Shown here: positions 45,675 through 64,000 of the stretch, in pieces
How the letters are laid out: each line of letters opens with the position of its first letter
Position numbering within the stretch: the stretch's first letter is position 1
Assembly: GCA_977862235.1 (NCBI GenBank)
Contig: OZ374564.1
Span: forward strand, 1,364,001-1,428,000
Direction: 5' to 3'
DNA from: Dudresnaya verticillata
Lineage: Eukaryota
Length of the DNA stretch: 64,000 nucleotides
The notes under the pieces: model-generated
What the model saw: only the letters and a program-made list of their open reading frames with translations
The model's database searches: none
What the model was told of the DNA's origin: nothing
Translations under genes and position numbers: made by a program

Positions 45675-45754
45675 CTTACACATCTGAACCAGGGTCTTCC
45701 ACCGTCCACTCCTCGAGGAGTGGACGGTGGAAGACCCTGGTTCAGATGTGTAAG
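45675..45754. repeat. Perfect 80-bp spacerless palindrome
   Basis: CTTACACATCTGAACCAGGGTCTTCCACCGTCCACTCCTC followed by its exact reverse complement. Confidence 0.97.
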
Positions 45755-48945: not shown

Positions 48946-51848
48946 TCACTCCACCAGTTTGAGGATGGCCAATTTCCCCTCTTCGCGCTGGGATACGCTG
49001 GTTGTGCGTAGCAGTACACCCAGCGTCCTCCCGTCCGCGCCCACTTGCACCGTCATGATGTCCTCCTCGAAACTGGCCATCACTTGCTCCACCCCGTCTA
49101 TGACGCGCACAAGGTCGTTCCGGCAAGCCTCGAAGCGCGCCCGACCGAGCATGGCGTCACCTGCAGCAGGCACTTCTGTTGGCGGCAAAAACTGCCGGCA
49201 AACGTCTTCCCAGTCTTGCCGCTCCTCGTTCTCGACCTCGGGGTGAATGCACTTTGTCGCCTCGACGTCCCAGACCCAAACCACCCCGTTCTTTGACTGC
49301 GCCACGACACGCATCCCGTCATTGCTTACCGCCACGCGCTCGATCAGATGCAAGCTCCCCTTCATGTGACGCCCTACCAGGTCCCAGTCTGAATCAACGT
49401 CCCATACGCGGATCACACCACGTCGCGTTCCTGACACGACTCGGCACCCATCAGCACTAAATGCGACTGCCGAGACCGATCGCGTGTGTCCCAGGAGACG
49501 CTCCCCTACCGTCTGTCCCGTATCGGCGTCCCACACTTGAACTCCGCCTGAATTCTCCCCGGACACCACGCGGGTGCCGTCAGTGCTAACGCCAATGCAC
49601 GACATCCCGCCCAAGTAACTAGTGAAAGGTCCTTCGCCACTCTGCTGCGATTCCACGTCCCATATGCGAACCGTCCCGGCCGCTGCCGTCGCCACACGAG
49701 TACCTTCAACGTTAATAGACACGCTCTCTACCCAGCCAGCATGTCCCGTTGAAAGCACCGTCACCAGCTCTCCTGTTTCAGCATCTGTCACTTTGACGGT
49801 ACGATTGCGCGCGCCTGATGCCACTCGCGGACCGCAGGTACCGTTGCCGCTAACTGCAACTGTTGTTACGCCGTCCCTGTGCAAGGTTAGGTACTTCGCC
49901 TTCAGTTTTTCTGCTTTCGTGTCCCACGCACGTACCTCATTTCGAAGAGTGCCGGAAACCACTCGAGTGCAGTCCGGACTAACCGCGACGGCCGCCACCC
50001 AAAAGTGACCTTCTGGGGCCAGTTCCGCTGCTTGCCCTCGTTCAACATCAAAGACTTGGAGTCTGCTATCAGGCGACCGCGACAACACATACGCTCCATC
50101 GCTGTTCTTTGTGAGAGCATCCACCCAGTCGCCAACGCCCGTCAGAGGATCCCCAGTTTCTGCATCCCAAACTCGAGCAGTCCCGCCATGTGTAATCGAC
50201 ACCACACGGATGCCGTCGGCCGTTGCCACGACGTTGTTCACTTCATCCCAGTGTCCAAGGAACGCATCACGTACCATTTCCTCAGACTCTGTTCTCCACA
50301 TACGTACTGACCGATCGCTAAAACCCATCACGACAATATCTCCATCTACAGATATAGCCCCAACACGTGCTTCGACTATCTCATGCTGACCTTCTCCAGC
50401 TGAACTCTCCTCGTCGACGATCCCTCCACCTTCACCATGACGCTGTGTACTCCCAACTTCTGCCCCTAACGCTGTTTCATTTTCGAGCTGCAGCTTCACA
50501 ATCTTGCTTTTCCCACTTTCATGCTTCGCGACGAAGAGGGCGCCGTCGCTGTTCGACCCACAACTTGTCACTCCTTGTCCTTCGATGAAACGAACATCAT
50601 AAACTACATATGGAACTTGAAATGTCTCCAACAGAGAGTCATGTGCTCCCTTCAAACACGATGTTACTGCCCGGATCCACGGTCTACGTGCAGACTTCTC
50701 CACTCGATGTATGAAATCTCCTACCCAGTTTGGTTTCGATTTCGTTGCTAGCAGTCTTGCATATAACTGAAACTAACTGCCCGTTGTGTTCCCCACCCCA
50801 TATAGGAGACTCATTCGCACAATCTTGGACAAAGCCTTTAGAACATCAGCCTTCTTCGCAGACTCGTCCACAGGCGCCGGGTGGGAACCTAGGCTACTGG
50901 CAGTTTCAATCTCACGCCCATCTTGTCCCCATTTCTTCAAATAAGACTCAACATCACTCTCGAGAAGCAAAACAGTGTTCATCGCCATCATCTTGAATAG
51001 CCATTGGGGGCTGCTAAGCACATTGTACACATCCGGGCCTCTCCCTGCAGCGTGAATAATTCTACACATGTTTCGCACGATGTAGCCGTCATCCTCGACA
51101 AACGCCGGCCAGCACTCCCCATCATCAATACTTTCCGGTAACTCTGACCTGTACGCTTCCAGTATCTGGTCGAACCACTTCAACAATTCCCCATTTCCTT
51201 TTTCTTCGGCTCCTTTTGCTTCAGACTGTGTGAAGTCGTGTGTAAGGTCGTGAAGCCGGAGCCCAAAACACAGCTTACCTCCAACATGTCGATACTCAGC
51301 ATCGGCTACCCCCACCCGTACCATTGCTTCTATCTTCTTCTTTGTCTCCACATCATCCGCAGTGCCCCAAATATGGCGCAGGGCTGGCACAGGAACCCAG
51401 TCCTGTTTCTGAATCACACACAACCGCCGATGCAATTCATGGTAGGTCGGCTGTGATCGGGCTTTCCCTCCCTCACGCGGCTTGTCCAGAATATCCAAGG
51501 AAACAAGCAGCGCTACACCATACCCTGGATAATTGTCTTTCGTCACCTGCTCTACTAATTCATGGCGTCTGAAAGACTCAAGATATACATTCCATGCAGC
51601 CCTCTTATTGCCGCCCATCGCGTCTCTGTCCGACTTAACTCCCGTTCCACACAGACTCAAAGCAAAAGGTAAGCCGTCGCAGATCTTCAGGATTGCATTA
51701 ATCGCTTCAGAACATTCAGCATCTTGCACCTCTGCTTCGACGTCAGCCTCCTCAACCCCCGCTACGCGCAGTAAAATATTCCTCGACTCTGGACCCAACG
51801 GATCTCGCGGATTGAATGTCACCGTGTCTCCTAGACTTCGAGCCTGTC
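48946..51848 (-). pseudogene. NLR/APAF-1-like protein: C-terminal NB-ARC part plus WD40 repeats; N-truncated and frameshifted near 50780
   Basis: GLPL-type CDGLPFAL, MHD-type LHDL, then many GH...WD repeats. No P-loop found upstream. Confidence 0.8.
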
Positions 51849-52835: not shown

Positions 52836-55800
52836 ATGTCAGCGTCGAAGAAAGTAGTGCTGTTGCTGAACGGAGAGGAGGTGGGTACGGCTGATCCAAT
52901 GACTCCGGCGTCTCCGGAAGAGGCAGACAGTACAGGTTCATTCAAAGTTAAGATGCATGGAACGTGGTTAAGAGAGGTGCAGCGGAAGAAGGAGACATGG
53001 ATAGTCATCTATAATCTCCGTATTCGGAATGGACATGGGGACAAGAGGTACATGTATAAGTATCCCGGTATAAAGTCTCCCCCCACCACTCTAGCTGGTC
53101 TAAATGTGGGTATTCATGTATGGGACAGGTAGCAAGTCCGCACTGTGAAGCCGCAACCTACAAGCGGTGCTGGAGAACCCGGCGTGGCGACCGGGGAAGC
53201 TTGCCCTCGGATAGAAATGGAGCAACCGGGTGAGAGGCACACTGTTCGTGCCCGGACGTCAACTAGGCGGTCAGGCCGTAGGGGGGTCGGGGACTTGCTC
53301 ATAAGCGGACGGTGACGAAAAAAATCACCCGTACCGGTCAGTCTGATCCCAGCGCTCAGCCACACCAAGAAGGTAATGACCGCACTACCCGCCCGTATGT
53401 GCCCGCGGCCGTACCAATTAGAGGGCAAAGAAAACACGGAAGCTGGGTTATCAAAACTGGAAAGTAATGACGCGGCGCCGCGTGGGAGCGCTCCAAAACC
53501 AGCCGAGGCTGAACGGGAGAAAGGAGATTCCGGGAACGGCGCACAAGAAGACAATACTCCCGTCGACACTACAGCAGAAGAATGTGCGGGAGGTCGTGAT
53601 CACTAGTCTGAAGAAGAGCATCCTGACGTCGAGACTGCAGACGATGGGGAGGATGCTGATTCCGACACGCCGGAATGGCACCCCTCCGAAGGGGAGGAGA
53701 TAACACTAGAAGGGCGTGGAGACGGCCAGGCTACTGCTAGGACGAGCCGGAAGAGGAATTATAGACATGATGCTCGTCCGAAAGGAACCCCATCGGGGCA
53801 TTTGATGGCTGCGAAGAGGAGAAAGGTAGTGGAGGTGATGGAGATGCAGGATATCTCAAACATTTTCTGCTGCCAAACGAAACAATGCTTCGGAACCATC
53901 GAGTCAGTCTACATCAGGACTGAGTCACGCAAAATGATGGACAAGAATCGCGCGGAAAGGAAGCGATACCTCACGGGACTACTGGAACCCAACTCCAACA
54001 TGTACTTCTTCAGCGGCCGGCCGGTTTGTTACTCATTTCTGGACAAGGCTTTCGGTTTCTCTAGAGACCTGCAGTCGGCAGTGAAAGGGACAAACAAGAG
54101 CCGCGAAAGGAAAGGGAGGGGGCTGATAGTTGGTGGTACTTCTACGGAACAGATGGAGGTGATAACTTCGTTCTTGGAGCGCCTCGCAGAAGTCTCTGTT
54201 GATTCGAAACCAGACAAGGCTGAAATCCACCTCCCCTTCTATGAGAAGCTCGCAGTCTATAACACGTTTGTGACTGAGCACCGCACTCTGTACCCTAACA
54301 GAGCAACACCATCACAGAGCTACTTTTATAGTATCTGGCTCCGCAGCTGTCCGCACATTAAGGTCAGGCGAACTCACCGGTTTTCAAAATGCTCCGAGTG
54401 CGAGGAGATCAAAGATCTTCTCGCAAAAGCGGCAACGGATCTAGCGGGAACCGAAGCGCTTCGCGAGCGGCGGGCAAGGCACGTGAGAATGGTCATGCAG
54501 GAGCGAACAGAATATCGCAAGAAGTGTGAGATGGCTTCGATGTATCCGCAGAACTATTGCTCACTCATCATCGACGGTGCTGACCAGTCCGCATTTGGAC
54601 TGCCACACTTCCACATCAAGGTGAAGGACACACGCGGACACGGAATGAAGGCCAAAGTAATCGGCGTTCTAGAGCATGGCCAAGTCCCACATCTAAACCT
54701 TTTCACGATGACTGCAGAGTTCGAAACAGGCGCAAACCATGTCATCGAAGCTTTGCATCGCGTATTGATGGCACGCAGAGAGAGGATGCCACTGAAGGGT
54801 ACGTTGTTCCTCCAGGTCGACAACTGTACTAGGGAGAATAAGAACAGGTTTATGTTCGGCTACTTGGAGTATCTCGTTGCTATGGGTGTATTTCCGGAAG
54901 TGCATGCGTCGTTTCTCCCCATCGGTCACACGCATGCCGATATCGATCAAGTTTTCAGCTGCACTTCGAAGAGATTACGCGTTCGAGACGCCATTATCAT
55001 GGACGACCTCATCCACGAACTACGGCAATCATACACTCCTCAACCGCGTGTCACGGAGATGTTGCAGATTATTAATTTCTCCGGGTTGTGCAAAGAGACC
55101 AGATGCCTCGGGCGTACCGAGCCCATTTCAGAATATCGGTACTTTAGGTTCAGTGCGGAAGGAGCTAAAGACACAGACGCCGGTACGTTCAAGACTCTCT
55201 GCGAAGTGAAGAGGGGCTGCAAAGACTCTTGGAAACCGTTACATACGCGAGATGGCCAGGGGGATTTTTGTTATTTCCCCCCAACCTGCACCGGACTCCA
55301 CCGACTCCCTGTCGAGCACCGCCAGATGAACACGAAGTAACCAAGCGTCTACGATCCGCCGAGACCAGAATCAGCAATCACAGTAAGCTACAGAAGCTGT
55401 TGGCACTTTGTGATAGAGTTTACGAGGACCGTGAAGACCCATTCCACTGGGCATTGGCGGATGTGTTTGAGTTGGAAGGGGCTTACAAACCGGATGGGAG
55501 CGGCCCTAGCGCACCCTCGGAATCGGGGTCAGACGCTGAGAATGTAGTGGAACAGGACCTCACTTACACAAAGAACAGCTTTGTAGCCGTACTAGGCGAC
55601 GACTGTACCGAAGGATGCCCGTTCTGGCTTGGGCAGGTGATGAATTGGGAGACGGATGGGGGGGCAAGGTTACCAATTTGCAAGTAGAGTGGTACCAGAG
55701 AAGGAGTACTCGAGGGAATACTTTCACCGGGCGTTATCAGAAGGCGAGAATAACCGATGCAAATGGACATGTCAAACCGTGGAGCGATACGGTCCCGGGG

Positions 55801-55968
55801 AAGTCGGTTTTAGTGGAGTTCGCGCGTTTAACCAACTCTGGAATACCCGTCAGGGTGCAGCGAAAGATCAGGGAAGCCCTAGAGATGCGAAAGAGAGGAG
55901 ACGATCCGGAAATTAGTACTTCGGTAGAGGCGGGGGGACCAGGAGCAAATGGCATGGAAAGCAAATAG
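52836..55968 (+). pseudogene. Sola1-like (DUF7869-type) DDD transposase with accessory N- and C-terminal domains
   Basis: IIDGADQ (D at 54573), QVDNCTRENKN (D at 54819), FLPIGHTHADIDQVFS (GHTHADID at 54924-54947), and KCSEC. 52836-55340 is one frame with stops at 53130, 53313 and 53604. Frameshifts at G-runs near 55260 and 55660. Confidence 0.8.
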
Positions 55969-56293
55969 CTTGGGGTGAGAGGGAGGCGAAGCAGGAATAA
56001 AGTTGTGTCGCTAGTGGCAAAATGGGGTCAAGATTCTGGGCGAGAATTGGAAAAGGGTTAGAGTGTATGCATGTAATGCCACGGAACAGAGTGTGCAGGC
56101 TAGCCTCATGACGCAGCTGCGTCATGAGGCAGCATCTTTGCTGGGTAAACCGGATTGCTTGTACAATCACAGTCGTGTTGTAAGCAACCTTAATGCCTGC
56201 AGCACGCCAAATAAGTGAGAAAAAAAGAACCACTGTTCTCTCTTATGCACTGATACAGAATGCAATTTCGGCTTTCTATCAACCACACGGGTT

Positions 56294-56719
56294 GTGATTA
56301 ACGTGTCCGACCTGCCAAATCGTACCTTGCACACTTTGGGTGCGATCACACCGCGGCACCCGCGGGTGCCCCCAAGTGAAGGGATGGTTCTACCCAATAC
56401 CTCAAGATCTGGCGGCGTGGAGGGTCTCAGGGGCTCTGGGAACCGCGCTCCCGCCATGGTTGTTGCTCGTCCGCAGGTGCAGAATCCGACACCAATGTTA
56501 GCAGGAGACGGGACGGGCTACATGACTTATGAGCGTGTCCGCGTGATAGTTCAGATGCTTTGTGATCTCGGGTCCTGTTCTGTCCTTTTGTCTGGGGATG
56601 AACTAAGGCTTGCAGTCGAAGCAGGCACGGACATGACCGAAACTGTTTTATATGCCAATGGGAAGACCTTGCAGGGGCTCGCGTTTGCGGTACATTTGCT
56701 GGTTTTAGGTCAACATTGA
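56294..56719 (+). CDS. Hypothetical protein, possible transposon cargo
   Basis: 141-aa ORF with no recognised motif. Confidence 0.25.
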   Translation: MINVSDLPNRTLHTLGAITPRHPRVPPSEGMVLPNTSRSGGVEGLRGSGNRAPAMVVARPQVQNPTPMLAGDGTGYMTYERVRVIVQMLCDLGSCSVLLSGDELRLAVEAGTDMTETVLYANGKTLQGLAFAVHLLVLGQH

Positions 56720-57062
56720 CTCAGAGTTTGATCTTGAGCACATTGCTCTGGTGGAGAAGAAGTCAAGGACAATCGCGAGTGTTCTCATTCGTATTAATCC
56801 GCATGCAGATTGATAGCATGTGCACATTGACGCTCAGGTCCATCCATTCATCACTACTGGGCTGGCGAGCAGCACGTTTGGTGTCCGCAATTCACATCTG
56901 CAACGATTTTTGAACCTTATCGAAGAGGAGACTTGCTGCGCTTGATCGGAGTGCATTTATATCTAGGCATTCCGGACGTATGATGTACCCTGGAAGCCGC
57001 CGGTCTCTTGTAAAGGTATGAAGCTATACCATTACCTAATTTAAAAGTAACCTTGTTTTGGT

Positions 57063-58924
57063 TTACCAGGACCGCGACAAGCTCAATCTTGCTGTCTGTC
57101 GGTAGGCATTAAAGACAGATCCTCCTAATACAACTAGCATGCCAACCACAGAAAAGTAAACAAAGTCAGACGGTAGGACCTCTAAGGCCCCAACAGAGTG
57201 CTCCACAGAGTAGACAACATCAATCCCTACGGCAGCAACCTGATCAAGTTGCTGCCGTCGGGAGTCGATTGTGACTTTCACTGCCATACAGTGCTGCGAC
57301 CGCTACCTGTCTCAGATCTGCAACACGATTGCCTCCGGACATGAATCTTGTCCAAGGGGACGAAAGTTCTAGCAGCGGTGTATACGAAAATGACCGTTCC
57401 ATTTAGTCCACAATATTGCGACGGGCAGGGCTTCCAGCGTCCACGAACAGTTTGGAAACAAGAGCAATCTGCCCAGTGTCTAACCGCATGAGGATAGGTT
57501 GCTCTGTGAACCCATGTTTCTTCAGGGTTACATTCAGACCATCCTCTCGAGTGCCAATAAGAGAGCTGCAATTCATTGCACGTAGCATCCTGAGGGGTGT
57601 TTCCGATCCCGTTCGAAGCCTCCTCTGGTCGTTACCGTTCGAAAGAGACGTTGACAACATGCACACAGGCAGCTGGCCACAAACGCCTGTACCGATACCA
57701 AAAATGTTTTCAGATAAAGGCCCAACAGCTGAGCAAACCATGCCAAGGACCATATCGCGTATAGCAGGCATATTCTTGAGGGGTTCGTACAAGTCGATTA
57801 CGTTGATTTCCTGCTGCAGCAGAAGAGTGTTCCAGGAGCTGTAGACAAACACATTACAGCTCTTCACTACGAAAACAGGACCTACGGCATTATTGTGCAT
57901 AGCAATGTCCAGAACTGAGCCTTTCCGACATTCAATAGCATTGCGTGTACCAGCATGTTTTCTTTGTCCTCGAGGACAGATCTAAAACCACCAAACGCAC
58001 ATCTACGTCATCGTACTTGAGCCATAGTTCACATCCCATTGTCACACGCACCGGAGGATCATACAATTGCCTCCCTGCAGTGTATCAGCGGCGACTTCGG
58101 AAACCACAATTTGTTAGGGTAATGACCGGTGCTACGTCTCGCTCCTTGCAAGGAAGCCGTGCACCTTGTGGCCGCTAGCCCCGTATGACAGCCAGCCGCG
58201 GTCGACCTGCCCATTCGGAACGACGTCACATCCCTGCAATGCGATGCCCCTTTCGAAACCCTCTCCATCCACCCGCACGACGTAAGCACAAACACTCGTG
58301 CCCTTCTGCCTGCGGATCAATGGTAGCTTGTTCAGCCTGGAATTCCGACAAGAACTTCCCAAATATGGCAGTGCCAGTTCCGAAGCTTACTGCCTTCACA
58401 AAGCTACCGGTCTCTCCATACCGGCACACGACGACAACAAGCTCCCGATGGATAGAGGCGAGAGCACAGAGTCTCTCTCCGACATGATTCTTCCACAGGA
58501 GTTCCCCTCCTCCCCGCGTGTTGTGCCCGTAAAGAGACCCAAGCGTGGACAATCCGACAAACAGCGACTTACCTGGGACCTCTTAGAAGGCGCCGTCAAA
58601 GAGATGCACCCGCACTTCCTCCCGTGCCCACACATCAGCGTCACCACCATCTACCCACAAGCGACCGCCTGGGGCCGATCTTAAGACTGTCGTGGCAAGC
58701 CGCCAGGTGAGTACGCGGTTGCCGGTTTCCAGCTCTGCTTGCAAAACGCCTATACTATCACTAGTCCAGTTCACGTTGTTGTACGTTACAGCCAGCCCCG
58801 TCCATGCGTGCACAAGAACGTTGGGATCATCTTGGGTGCATGGCCGCACAACGAATTGGACATCATCTGAGGAGACATTGCATCCTCGGCGCGAGCACGC
58901 GCGCGCGTCTACGACATACTTCAC
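57063..58924 (-). pseudogene. Decayed hypothetical gene (~600 codons)
   Basis: Chain of protein-like minus-strand ORFs; 58583..58924 and 58226..58552 share a frame. Confidence 0.4.
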
Positions 58925-59460
58925 AACGCACGAACAAGACTGCGAGGTTCATTGCGCGGTTGCCAACCTAAACAGCCCCATGCACGGTTGCAAACTAGGC
59001 ATGCTTCGTCTTGACGAGAATTGTTACGCGAGACGAGCAGGACCCGCGGGGGAGGCGTCGGAGTCTGTGGCGTCTCGAGTGCAGACAGACGTAATGCAGA
59101 CGCAGTCTGGGTGGATGTGCTCGCAGTTGACAGCACGACGGATAGGGACGCGGGATGCGCAGGCTACTGCGGTGGCGCATACGTCAGCAAACACATCACA
59201 GTGCGCGACGGGGGCACTTCCGCGAGCGCTTCGCAGTGCGGAGCATTTCCGCAGACGCGGGCTGGGTGAATGGGCTCGCAGTTGACAGCAGGATGGATAG
59301 GGACCGCTGGAGGTACCGTTACGCGACACAGTGTGTCGCCTCGAGCTTGAAAAGAGAGGAGGTGGTGATGGTAGGAGACGGCGGTGACCACGAGGACGGT
59401 GCATGCGGTGAGGTTGCGGTGCGTGGAGACATGCTCCGCAGCAGGCGGGTGACCAGCAAC

Positions 59461-59765
59461 CGGATAGCTAATTCAGTGAGACTTCCGCCGGAGCTATCGG
59501 CGCATATGGATTTTTTTATAGCTCCCTGTCGCCGACATATTCGAAAAGCTATTTCTTAGGTTTCCCATTTCGGCGACTATGGGAGCTATGTAGCTAACGG
59601 AATGCCGCGAGTGTAAATATCTATTTTCTTAGGTATTTTGATTTCGGGAAACACGGGAGCTATATAGCTCCCGCGGAGGAGGAAATCAAAAAGCTAAGAA
59701 AATAGATATTAGATTTCTCCGGCGCCATTAGCTATTGGCTGATATTCATATTCGTTTATAGCTTT
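59461..59765. promoter_or_regulatory. AT-rich palindrome cluster built from AGCTA/TAGCT units
   Basis: Perfect CGGGAGCTATATAGCTCCCG at 59654-59673 inside a ~29-bp-arm inverted repeat (59616-59710). Second hairpin at 59518-59589. Confidence 0.8.
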
Positions 59766-60193
59766 TCACTTTGGTCCTCCTGCGTTTGCTACTTTTCCCG
59801 AGACGCCCAGCCGCACCGCTCCGAGCCCGACATCATCTGAAAACGCACTGCCACTCAAGAAAACGCACACCACACAACACCAGCGCCCTTGACAAGGGCA
59901 GCACACGACTGGAACCCTTTTCACAGCGTAGGTCGAGCCCTCGCCCCCGCACCGTCCCCACTGCTTCCGCCCTTCGCATCCGGCGTCGTGCTCGGTTTAG
60001 CGCTCACTGCAGATGATGGCTGCGTGGGCGGCGACTTTGTTCCGCTTGGAGGGTCCGTCGGCGTCGGTGCTTTTGATGTTTGTCGTGTGTAGCCGCCAGG
60101 GATTTTCGGCCGTGCGCGGCCGTGCGCAGCCATAGCCGAAAGAGACGATGGCAATCTGCATAGGACGCTTGTCAGCTGCATACACTACGAGCT

Positions 60194-60777: not shown

Positions 60778-63708
60778 TCATGGCTCTCTATCACAACCCT
60801 CCATCATGTGAAGATCCCATGCGAAGAATGCGTTTAAGTCTCGCAGCAGTGCTGGCGGTTCCTCCGGACCCTTAAAAGTGTACTTATACGGCCTCTCCGC
60901 GAACTCATCGCGAACTTTGAAGGAAAATACAGCCACGAGATGCTCTCCCTCCTTGCCGAGCTCCCGCAACCCGTGCTGGTGTATTTCTGTCTTCAGTCCG
61001 TGGGCGTCGTTACCCGGTTGCAATACTGCCTTCCCAACCTTATCTGGACCACACAGCAGCCAAACTGCGTCACCACCTTTGAGTTGCGGTCGATCGCATG
61101 ACAGCGGTTTCTCCCTAGGCTTTCCTGTACGTTTCCCAGACTGTTGCTTACCTGGGGACATCATTAGAGTCTGTGATTCCCTTTCAGACTGATCAGTACG
61201 TACCCTCTTCGTGTCCGGCTGTTTGTCTATCTGTTTTGCCGAACGCTTCTGTGCTTGGACCCCTGCATCTTGAGAAGACCCGTTCTGCTTCTCCTCTGCC
61301 ATGCGCTGCAGGCGTGCACGAGCCAGTCTGTATGTTTCCGGGTTTCTTTCGACGAGGTAACACTCTCTGTCTGTCCGAAGGCAGGCAATGCCTGTAGTCA
61401 TTGTCCCCGCATGAGAGTCTAGGACCGAGCCGCCTTCAGGGCAGAAGGTTATGATGATCTCAGTAAGTGCATCAGGATTTTTCTCCTCCGTCAGAACTAG
61501 TGCCCTGCTAGTCCCTGGCTTCATGAGCTTATCTCTGGGTACGGGAACAGAGGTCATCACAGCAAACTTTCGTCGCTCCTTACACGAGATGAAGTGGTAC
61601 GGGCTGGAGAGGTCTGGAGAGAAAGAGTTCTTGGATGTACCCTTGCGCCTTCCGAAGGCTGCTGCCTCAGCCCCATTCTGCAGTCCCTTCTTGCGACTTA
61701 TCTGGACAGTAGTTGTGTCTTTGCAGAGTAAGAAAGGGTACTGCGGACTATCGAAATTGTTGTCGGTAAGTGCCTTTTGAAACAACGGGAATTTCAAGAA
61801 GCTGCAGAACAGAAACACCCAACCACCCTCCTTCACAACACGTCCACAAAACTCGCAAAGGCGCTTGATGTCTTCTTCACTGAAATGGTTTGCGTATGCA
61901 GTTCCAGCATTTGACATTCCCTTCAGGGTACCATACGGAGGGTCAGCAAGCACGAGGTCAAAGAGAGGACTGCATTCATTCCTGATTGATTGGTCATATT
62001 CCTCCCACTTCATCTGATATGTTCGTATCCTGCATTTGGAAAGCGGGTCCTTCTCCTCCACATCAGAACCGGTATCCAGTCCCTTCGACTTGCGTGTTGA
62101 AGAAACAGAACGACTACCCGGTCCAATACACTCGTTCGGGATGTCATTGTTACCAGCTAATGCGCCTGTGTCGTTGTCGTCTGTAGGATCCAGGACCGAT
62201 TGCGTATTCTGCCTCTGCGTGTCAGTTACAGTATCCTTAACGGCTTCCGACTGCTTTTGGCCACCAAGGGCCCCCTTAGAGTCTTTTTCTTTCCCCCCTT
62301 GAGGTTTTCCATCAACTTCAGAGCTCGTCTTATCAATCTCAGAAGCTGAAACTATTGGCTTCTCAGTTTCTCCTATGTCTGGAGATGTATCTTTCCCAGA
62401 ATCAGTTTCTGCTTGGAACTGGTGCTTGAATTTCTTTTCCTTACCTGGAGCTTGTTGCGGGCATTCCCTTCGATAAGCGGCTATCAAGGGTTTGAGCACA
62501 TCGTGGTCATTTCCGAAGTTTGCACGCACCTCGTGGTCCAGCTTCGTTGAGTGAAGGAGGTTCTGGCGAATGACGTTCATACCTTCAGGCCAACTCTGGC
62601 TCTCGATAAGGCGTTCGAATTTCCGTGCTTCCTTCATTGCTGCTTTCGCCCTTCCAAATTGTTCCAGAGTCTGAAAGCTGGTGACTGACCGGAAACTCTG
62701 AAGTCGATGTACTTCGCGTAGTCGGTACGAAGTTGAAATCTGTATTTCTACGCCATCCTCCAGTTTGTTCCCATTCATGAAGGCGATTGCAGACTTCAGT
62801 GATGAAATGTGGATGAACTTTCTGTAGACTCGGCAGTCAACCTTCCTCATTGCTCCGTCCTTGTCGAGTGTTGTCCCTTCCTTGTCTCCCGTCATCTTTG
62901 CAGCTAGATCCGGTCTCTCGTCATTTGTAATTTGTCCAATTGCGTGAATTACTCTCGTATCCAACCGCATAACTGTCTGAGCAGTCTGTTTAATGGTGTT
63001 GTTCCGATATAACTTCGAACCGTCATACGCCTCCACAATTTTTGGGGCATTTGGTCGTTTCCCAGTCTTGGCCTGCAACCTCTCCGCCTCCTCCCGCAGA
63101 CCGCGGACCAGGTCAAAAAATGTAGTCTCGATAAAGTATCCCTGGTCGTGTTTCTCATTCTGATGTCGTGCCAGCTGCCGGAGCTCATGGACGTTTTGCC
63201 CACTCTTCAAAATCGTTACAGGCCATGCGAAAGACTGCCAGACTGTTGGGAACTCCTCCATTAACTCCAAAATAACGCAATGTCTATGCAAGCCGTCAAC
63301 AATGCCGTACCATTTGGAGCGATTGTTTGCCTTCTCCAAAGCCTCCTCCTCCGTGTACTCCTTCCCTTCCTCTTTCATATTCTTGAAATACGCAACGACG
63401 TGACCCCGCAGAGACCCTGTCATTTCGATGACAATTGGAGAGTCAGACCCGGCAACGTACCCAATAGTCCCTTCACCGCCTTTCTTCTCTGATGAGTGCA
63501 GATGAACGCGAGCTTTGAGGCGTTCCACTCCGGAGCGCACCACGGGTCTTATTGCTGTTAGCGGGAAGCACGCCCTGGGGTCAATTCTCATATTCACGGA
63601 ACCCTCCATAACGTCAGAAAACAATGCCCTCCTCATGCTTGCAGAAGAGCAATTTTGGTCCGCTTCAGATTGTGTAACAGCACCCTTTCCTGAACGTTTC
63701 TTGCCCAT
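60778..63708 (-). CDS. ParB/Srx-like domain + beta-class DNA amino-methyltransferase (N6-adenine or N4-cytosine) + C-terminal domain shared with the transposase
   Basis: Uninterrupted ORF; first ATG at 63708 gives 976 aa. YGIVDGLHR (IVDGLHR at ~63283-63303), catalytic DPPY (61933-61944), then EKNP...PEGGSVLDSHAGTMTTGIAC (SAM-binding motif I after motif IV). Confidence 0.9.
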   Translation of the reverse strand: MGKKRSGKGAVTQSEADQNCSSASMRRALFSDVMEGSVNMRIDPRACFPLTAIRPVVRSGVERLKARVHLHSSEKKGGEGTIGYVAGSDSPIVIEMTGSLRGHVVAYFKNMKEEGKEYTEEEALEKANNRSKWYGIVDGLHRHCVILELMEEFPTVWQSFAWPVTILKSGQNVHELRQLARHQNEKHDQGYFIETTFFDLVRGLREEAERLQAKTGKRPNAPKIVEAYDGSKLYRNNTIKQTAQTVMRLDTRVIHAIGQITNDERPDLAAKMTGDKEGTTLDKDGAMRKVDCRVYRKFIHISSLKSAIAFMNGNKLEDGVEIQISTSYRLREVHRLQSFRSVTSFQTLEQFGRAKAAMKEARKFERLIESQSWPEGMNVIRQNLLHSTKLDHEVRANFGNDHDVLKPLIAAYRRECPQQAPGKEKKFKHQFQAETDSGKDTSPDIGETEKPIVSASEIDKTSSEVDGKPQGGKEKDSKGALGGQKQSEAVKDTVTDTQRQNTQSVLDPTDDNDTGALAGNNDIPNECIGPGSRSVSSTRKSKGLDTGSDVEEKDPLSKCRIRTYQMKWEEYDQSIRNECSPLFDLVLADPPYGTLKGMSNAGTAYANHFSEEDIKRLCEFCGRVVKEGGWVFLFCSFLKFPLFQKALTDNNFDSPQYPFLLCKDTTTVQISRKKGLQNGAEAAAFGRRKGTSKNSFSPDLSSPYHFISCKERRKFAVMTSVPVPRDKLMKPGTSRALVLTEEKNPDALTEIIITFCPEGGSVLDSHAGTMTTGIACLRTDRECYLVERNPETYRLARARLQRMAEEKQNGSSQDAGVQAQKRSAKQIDKQPDTKRVRTDQSERESQTLMMSPGKQQSGKRTGKPREKPLSCDRPQLKGGDAVWLLCGPDKVGKAVLQPGNDAHGLKTEIHQHGLRELGKEGEHLVAVFSFKVRDEFAERPYKYTFKGPEEPPALLRDLNAFFAWDLHMMEGCDREP

Positions 63709-64000
63709 CCAGCCAAAAATGTAATTCAGCACTTTTGAACAAACGGTCGCCGTACGTCTTTCCAACTGGTTGCCGAAGTTGTTTCCAACTGGTTGTGTTA
63801 AGCTGATGAGCACGGGATAAGCGTTGCGGTTTCCACGAAGAGCACTTCGTGTTTACAACAATATGTCCGTAGTCAGGTCAGTGGTCACTGCATTGAAAGA
63901 CAATATATATCATGCCGGTTTCCAGCTTTAACCTGGAAACGAAGTTTGTCCGCATGACTAACAGCCTCACGTACGGTTTTAACTTTGCCGGAAAGATAGT

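Follow-up and report, generated by a model that had tools for sequence, protein, structure and literature searches.

In the genome of Dudresnaya verticillata, an array of AGCTA half-sites forms one dyad-symmetric, AT-rich unit of 327 bp (59465-59791, centre near 59627). It probably represents a non-autonomous DNA transposon of the foldback (MITE-like) kind, inserted into a relic of the EMC1 gene in a transposon-rich genome. All positions refer to the window, i.e. the whole stretch of 64,000 nucleotides that was analysed (assembly GCA_977862235.1, contig OZ374564.1, positions 1,364,001 to 1,428,000 of the forward strand). An earlier note on this DNA had described a parS-like palindrome array at 59461-59765 with two hairpins. 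The feature itself is real, but it reaches 59791 and forms one mirror-symmetric whole instead of two separate hairpins. A sequence check found all the strings that had been picked out (the 20-bp palindrome, both arm pairs and the second hairpin) where they were said to be. The element and its ends are as follows.

59465-59791, unstranded: whole dyad-symmetric element, TA at each end included, by arm alignment and GC; likely a non-autonomous foldback/MITE-like DNA transposon
59465-59507, plus strand: left terminal arm, the outer part of a degenerate terminal inverted repeat, pairing with 59748-59790 inverted
59748-59791, minus strand: right terminal arm, extending beyond the earlier coordinates
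59465-59466, unstranded: TA at the left end, a candidate target-site duplication or the first letters of a TAGCTA motif
59790-59791, unstranded: TA at the right end, the second copy of the candidate duplication

When the two arms were aligned with each other, 98 of 167 columns were identical (59%) and the score was 107, compared with a mean of 24 and a maximum of 51 in 1000 shuffles; the centre had been picked post hoc, and the common motif inflates such scores. The symmetry has definite limits. Within 59465-59790, all four inner segment pairs (40-43 nt) were symmetric, their scores being reached by 4, 1, 28 and 3 of 1000 shuffles. None of the four outer pairs was symmetric (101, 816, 756 and 395 of 1000 shuffles), and the 40 bases next outward from the right terminal arm were not significant (101/1000). 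The left terminal arm matched its inverted partner in 24 of 44 columns, a score reached by 3 of 1000 shuffles. At the very ends, the terminal 18-mers were identical at 12 of 18 positions without gaps, a level of match seen at just 12 of 127964 window positions. Degenerate terminal inverted repeats are thus present in the 327-bp element and are significant. The arm mismatches comprised 23 transitions and 39 transversions; this lack of a transition excess is unlike a recently decayed perfect repeat.

The array had been credited with about a dozen AGCT cores in 300 bp, and we counted 11 exact cores in 59461-59765, all of them as AGCTA and/or TAGCT. Dinucleotide shuffles of the region contained a mean of 1.2 cores and never reached 11 (0/20000), and any other 300-bp stretch of the window held three at most. 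Listing the 5-mers with no more than one mismatch to AGCTA or TAGCT in the range 59440-59820 gave 19 cores. Sixteen of these fell into eight mirror pairs about 59627, with coordinate sums of 119250-119253:

59466/59787: core mirror pair 1
59492/59760: core mirror pair 2
59520/59730: core mirror pair 3
59547/59704: core mirror pair 4
59558/59692: core mirror pair 5
59584/59666: core mirror pair 6
59592/59658: core mirror pair 7
59619/59631: core mirror pair 8

The cores at 59455, 59711 and 59737 had no partner. The mirror-symmetric spacings between cores were 26, 28, 27, 11, 26, 8, 27, 12, 27, 8, 26, 12, 26, 30 and 27 nt. The outermost spacings (28 and 30 nt) depart alike from the inner period on either side, as would not be the case in a plain tandem array. 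The TRF output had no entry for the array. Autocorrelation peaked at 73, 146 and 294 nt, and the inner period of about 73 nt explains the two hairpins that were seen at first:

59616-59710, unstranded: best-kept inner hairpin, 39 of 48 columns paired, with arms 59616-59632/59694-59710 and 59636-59645/59682-59691
59654-59673, unstranded: perfect 20-bp palindrome with two AGCT cores 8 nt apart and a degenerate twin at 59581-59595
59517-59590, unstranded: second inner hairpin, 22 of 31 columns paired, with arms 59518-59535/59570-59589

As DNA, the region folded far better than its shuffles (z = -6.5 and -8.7). The same autocorrelation peaks, together with pairing that is better in the local hairpins than in the long arms, would suit a local foldback or satellite that was never mobile and grew by template switching or by duplicating a palindromic 73-nt unit in tandem. 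Similarly, the RNA folding scores of the two strands (z = -10.0 and -8.2) would suit a hairpin-RNA precursor. However, the array is unrelated to its GC-rich flanks and so did not grow from them, the two strands fold about equally well, and none of five matches to the array reached an Rfam gathering score (best E 0.24). We regard a local or hairpin-RNA origin as very doubtful.

The composition of the array also sets it apart. GC was 0.42 over 59464-59763, compared with 0.63 and 0.61 in the two flanks, with change points in the ranges 59455-59512 and 59765-59804. The element has no coding frame; stops occur in all three minus-strand frames, and no ORF of at least 60 aa lies wholly inside it. The mirror-symmetric ends, the TA at both termini and the GC step give it the anatomy of a self-contained insertion. 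We singled out TA among many short direct repeats because the arm symmetry stops there. It is a candidate target-site duplication, although as evidence it is weak, since TA also opens the TAGCTA motif. Competing direct repeats were the 6-bp ATAGCT, with copies 294 bp apart, and another 6-bp repeat farther out. An insertion of 294 bp between the two ATAGCT copies was considered and demoted, as the symmetry proved to extend to 59791.

The surrounding DNA carries remnants of host genes:

57063-59464, minus strand: broken EMC1 (ER membrane complex subunit 1) gene, by homology over 57063-57981 and putatively over 57982-59464
59792-59900, minus strand: putative signal peptide and mature N-terminus of EMC1, across the array from the relic, with no Pfam or PDB match
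56513-56960, plus strand: frameshifted relic of diaminopimelate decarboxylase (lysA), facing the EMC1 relic; the best PDB match is a chloroplastic enzyme (E 6.7e-6)

Positions 3-147 of the Pfam EMC1_C model aligned with 57981-57301 across an in-frame stop (E 9.6e-8), and positions 157-214 continued in another frame to 57066 (E 0.056). A PDB search aligned residues 766-913 of human EMC1 to the C-terminal part of the relic. The C-terminal domain of this EMC1 gene carries an in-frame stop and a frameshift. To the right of the array, a hydrophobic stretch (CCVVCVFLS) is followed by AFSDDVGL. Mature human EMC1 starts with VYEDQVGK once the signal is removed (PMC8162549), and three of the eight residues are identical. 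Judged from these sequences, the 5′ part of EMC1 likely continues on either side of the array, and the array would then lie inside the gene. Pfam and PDB searches with the pieces adjoining the array gave no significant EMC1 match, and word-seeded searches for full-length EMC1 relatives found none among 520 and 813 candidates. In the atlas, the piece to the left of the array had no usable match, and the C-terminal piece matched only beta-propeller clusters below 0.8. There is presumably further EMC1 likeness on either side of the array, which we did not count as evidence. After the element was removed in silico, all three frames were open, so the frame does not discriminate. Within the EMC1 relic, a direct repeat of 54 nt (59096-59149 and 59251-59304, 89% identity, copies 155 nt apart) is likely an internal duplication.

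Because it holds the EMC1 relic and the frameshifted lysA relic, the segment from 56.5 to 60 kb resembles host chromosomal DNA in decay, flanked by two transposon-type genes. A short non-coding unit (327 bp) in such a segment, in a window full of transposon ORFs and long repeats, supports the foldback reading. The array had been said to sit between apparently divergent ORFs. These ORFs turned out to be only mechanical; the six plus-strand ORFs of the flanks showed no convincing Pfam family (best E 0.025), and the minus-strand flank to the left is the broken EMC1 gene, so a real divergent gene pair does not exist.

A location within EMC1 also raises the question of splicing, as the array might be, or might have become, a spliceosomal intron of this gene (introner-like). 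On the minus strand, the distance from the GT at 59792 to the AG at 59468 is exactly 325 nt, i.e. the element plus one TA, and a second GT at 59769 would join the upstream and downstream EMC1-like frames. However, a GT(A/G)AG donor was not found, nor was a CT(A/G)A(C/T) branch motif close to the 3′ end. The AG is part of the TAGCT motif anyway, and the gene is broken elsewhere. An intron is highly improbable.

Otherwise, a large EnSpm/Plavaka- or Mutator-like element might run from about 59464 through the neighbouring methyltransferase gene and beyond the window, with the array as the subterminal repeats of its left end. In subterminal regions of EnSpm elements, short motifs typically occur in either orientation over about 300 bp, which the array resembles, and EMC1 homology was demonstrated only to its left. 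On the other side, the symmetry closes at 59791, where GC is back at the flank level, and an EMC1-like N-terminal piece probably lies to the right of the array. Moreover, EnSpm elements start with CAC or CCC, and such a start is absent at 59464. It seems quite unlikely that the array is the end of a larger element.

That neighbouring gene is what had suggested a parS-like function:

60778-63813, minus strand: intact ORF with a ParB/Srx-like domain, an HTH-like part and an N6/N4 methyltransferase (PF01555, E 7.5e-11), hereafter ParB-MTase

The earlier note had placed this gene about 1 kb from the array, and indeed its stop codon lies 987 bp away from the array, with 986 bp between the two. Its label of ParB-HTH methyltransferase also held: a ParB/Srx-like domain is followed by an HTH-like part and a DPPY-type methyltransferase, with moderate fold scores. 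A structure model of the first 420 residues (mean pLDDT 66.6) matched Noc, ParB and PadC. The best Foldseek match was Noc (E 4e-3); PadC gave Z 7.9 (rmsd 2.8, 94 aligned) and KorB gave Z 6.2, and the HTH-like structural matches covered residues 176-244. On this predicted structure, the neighbour would fold like ParB/Srx plus HTH, a moderate match. Four relatives of ParB-MTase with 29-50% identity were found on contigs of 3-12 kb; a search of viral and prokaryotic contigs for loci of its relatives found none. No Pfam match to a 2OG or SET domain was found in ParB-MTase, and the window ends about 190 bp past the ORF start.

In one alternative, the array would be a cis-acting parS-like binding or methylation platform for this ParB-HTH methyltransferase, both travelling in one giant transposon. 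Several observations agree with it. The predicted fold of the neighbour is ParB/Noc/PadC-like and its DPPY motif is kept, the half-sites are regularly spaced dyads that a dimeric DNA-binding protein could use, and just 987 bp lie between array and gene. A preprint on the red alga Bostrychia describes tandem inverted-repeat arrays adjoining ParB-like PAG3 genes (10.1101/2025.02.11.637652); this precedent means that the idea of a cis-array is not new. However, the ends of the array are closed and mirror-symmetric, and the array likely interrupts a host gene relic. The DNA between array and ParB-MTase is host-like in GC (0.61 and 0.56, compared with 0.50 in the ORF), and the density of transposons makes a proximity of 1 kb unremarkable. 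In ParB proteins, the CTP-binding arginine patch is GxxRxxA. ParB-MTase has DGLHR at the Srx-type position (DGxH in 5/5 rows), and a GxRR match is absent. We consider such a platform unlikely. The methylation-controlled bidirectional promoter that had been proposed was not supported. The 3′ end of ParB-MTase faces the array; with the stop codon and not the start on that side, the array cannot be the promoter of this gene. A sigma-70 promoter and terminator scan, which is of a type unsuited to a eukaryote, returned 0 sites. The earlier note had itself named an independent MITE as the case that would speak against its view, and the self-contained anatomy of the array matches that case, with the parS-like reading staying on as an unlikely rival.

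The foldback reading agrees with known elements in several respects. The foldback elements Tetris, FB and Galileo have modular terminal inverted repeats (PMC4079207). The array shares with foldback transposons and MITEs a short, non-coding and AT-rich sequence with long inverted arms made of internal repeat modules (PMC4079207). It differs from them in that its arms are only 59% alike and a middle domain is missing, and its candidate duplication is the 2-bp TA, compared with 8-10 bp described for Tetris (PMC4079207). With Replitrons and Helitrons, it has in common hairpins near the ends and a short direct repeat (ATAGCT) that can be drawn near the ends (10.1101/2022.12.15.520654). Inverted symmetry of the whole element is a feature of the array and not a hallmark of Replitrons or Helitrons; in red algae, no Replitrons are reported to have been found (10.1101/2022.12.15.520654).

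Comparison with ParB-associated arrays gave a mixed picture. Dyad half-sites near the gene of a ParB-fold protein are common to the array and to bacterial parS or Noc-binding sites, whereas the array has a eukaryotic context, 16 short half-sites in a foldback unit and no parA seen in the window. In Bostrychia, the preprint describes Plavaka (EnSpm) elements with tandem inverted-repeat arrays beside PAG3, for which self-binding is only proposed; it gives PAG2 as PF01555 plus SET, PAG3 as ParB plus a 2OG oxygenase, and 7BNR as the best PAG3 match (10.1101/2025.02.11.637652). The structure 7BNR also appeared at ranks 3 and 9 among the matches to our ParB-MTase model. The PAG3 arrays and the array of the window both consist of inverted-repeat units in the vicinity of a gene whose N-terminal domain is ParB-like. 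By contrast, the array studied here is closed-ended and likely lies in a host gene relic, the arrays being compared by description, and ParB-MTase joins a ParB-like domain and PF01555 in one ORF, unlike PAG2 or PAG3 as described there. By description, the domain set of ParB-MTase is a mix of those of the two Plavaka accessory genes.

Beyond the EMC1 relic, the window contains retrotransposon-type pol ORFs and long repeats (family names assigned by eye), a WD40 gene and a DUF7869 gene:

53607-55968, plus strand: DUF7869 gene (E 2.3e-46), apparently frameshifted near its 3′ end

This eukaryotic gene content, together with the likeness of ParB-MTase to the accessory genes of Bostrychia, points to a probably red-algal genome. 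We take the DUF7869 gene to be transposase-like; the term DUF7869 was not found in the literature searched. About 135 bp past the end of this gene, a perfect 28-bp palindrome centred on CAGCTG (56103-56130) may mark the end of that element. A perfect, loopless 80-bp palindrome at 45675-45754 could reflect either a foldback junction or an artefact of assembly. The WD40-repeat ORF (48946-51846, minus strand) is split by one stop codon and is preceded in frame by an NB-ARC-like piece, recognized by eye and without a Pfam match.

We found no second copy of the element in the 64-kb window, where the surroundings of the DUF7869 and ParB-MTase genes also lacked matching element ends. Pattern scans of collections without eukaryotic genomes returned 0, 1, 2, 5 and 1 loci, and 9/9 shared only the searched motif; plasmid and phage DNA gave no match to the array. 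In one bacterial MAG contig (L006, 580-1090), an AGCTA-rich tandem repeat of about 107-111 bp looks like eukaryotic DNA and has only the motif in common with the array of the window. No description of this element was found in the literature searched, the supplements of the Bostrychia preprint lying outside that search.

If the array is a foldback transposon, the element would likely have inserted at a TA in the 5′ part of the broken EMC1 gene and left a TA duplication. Its two 163-bp arms are inverted repeats in degenerate form, made up of modules of about 73 nt. An autonomous partner would then likely supply, in trans, the transposase or accessory DNA-binding protein that binds the AGCTA half-sites, and the bound protein might pair the two ends for cut-and-paste movement. 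In this the array would work as foldback elements do (PMC4079207).

It is also conceivable, but unlikely, that the array is a mobile parS-like module. In that case, the ParB-HTH methyltransferases of red-algal giant transposons would load at the AGCTA half-sites of this non-autonomous foldback unit and methylate adenine there, and the protein would mark or license its own elements together with dispersed mini-elements. The finding would gain in importance if a ParB-fold methyltransferase targets the AGCTA dyads. The array is compact (327 bp), the spacing of its half-sites is known and an intact ORF lies beside it, which makes it well suited to a test of binding and methylation. If the foldback reading holds, the array would simply add to the small DNA transposons of a repeat-rich algal genome and be of use for annotation alone.
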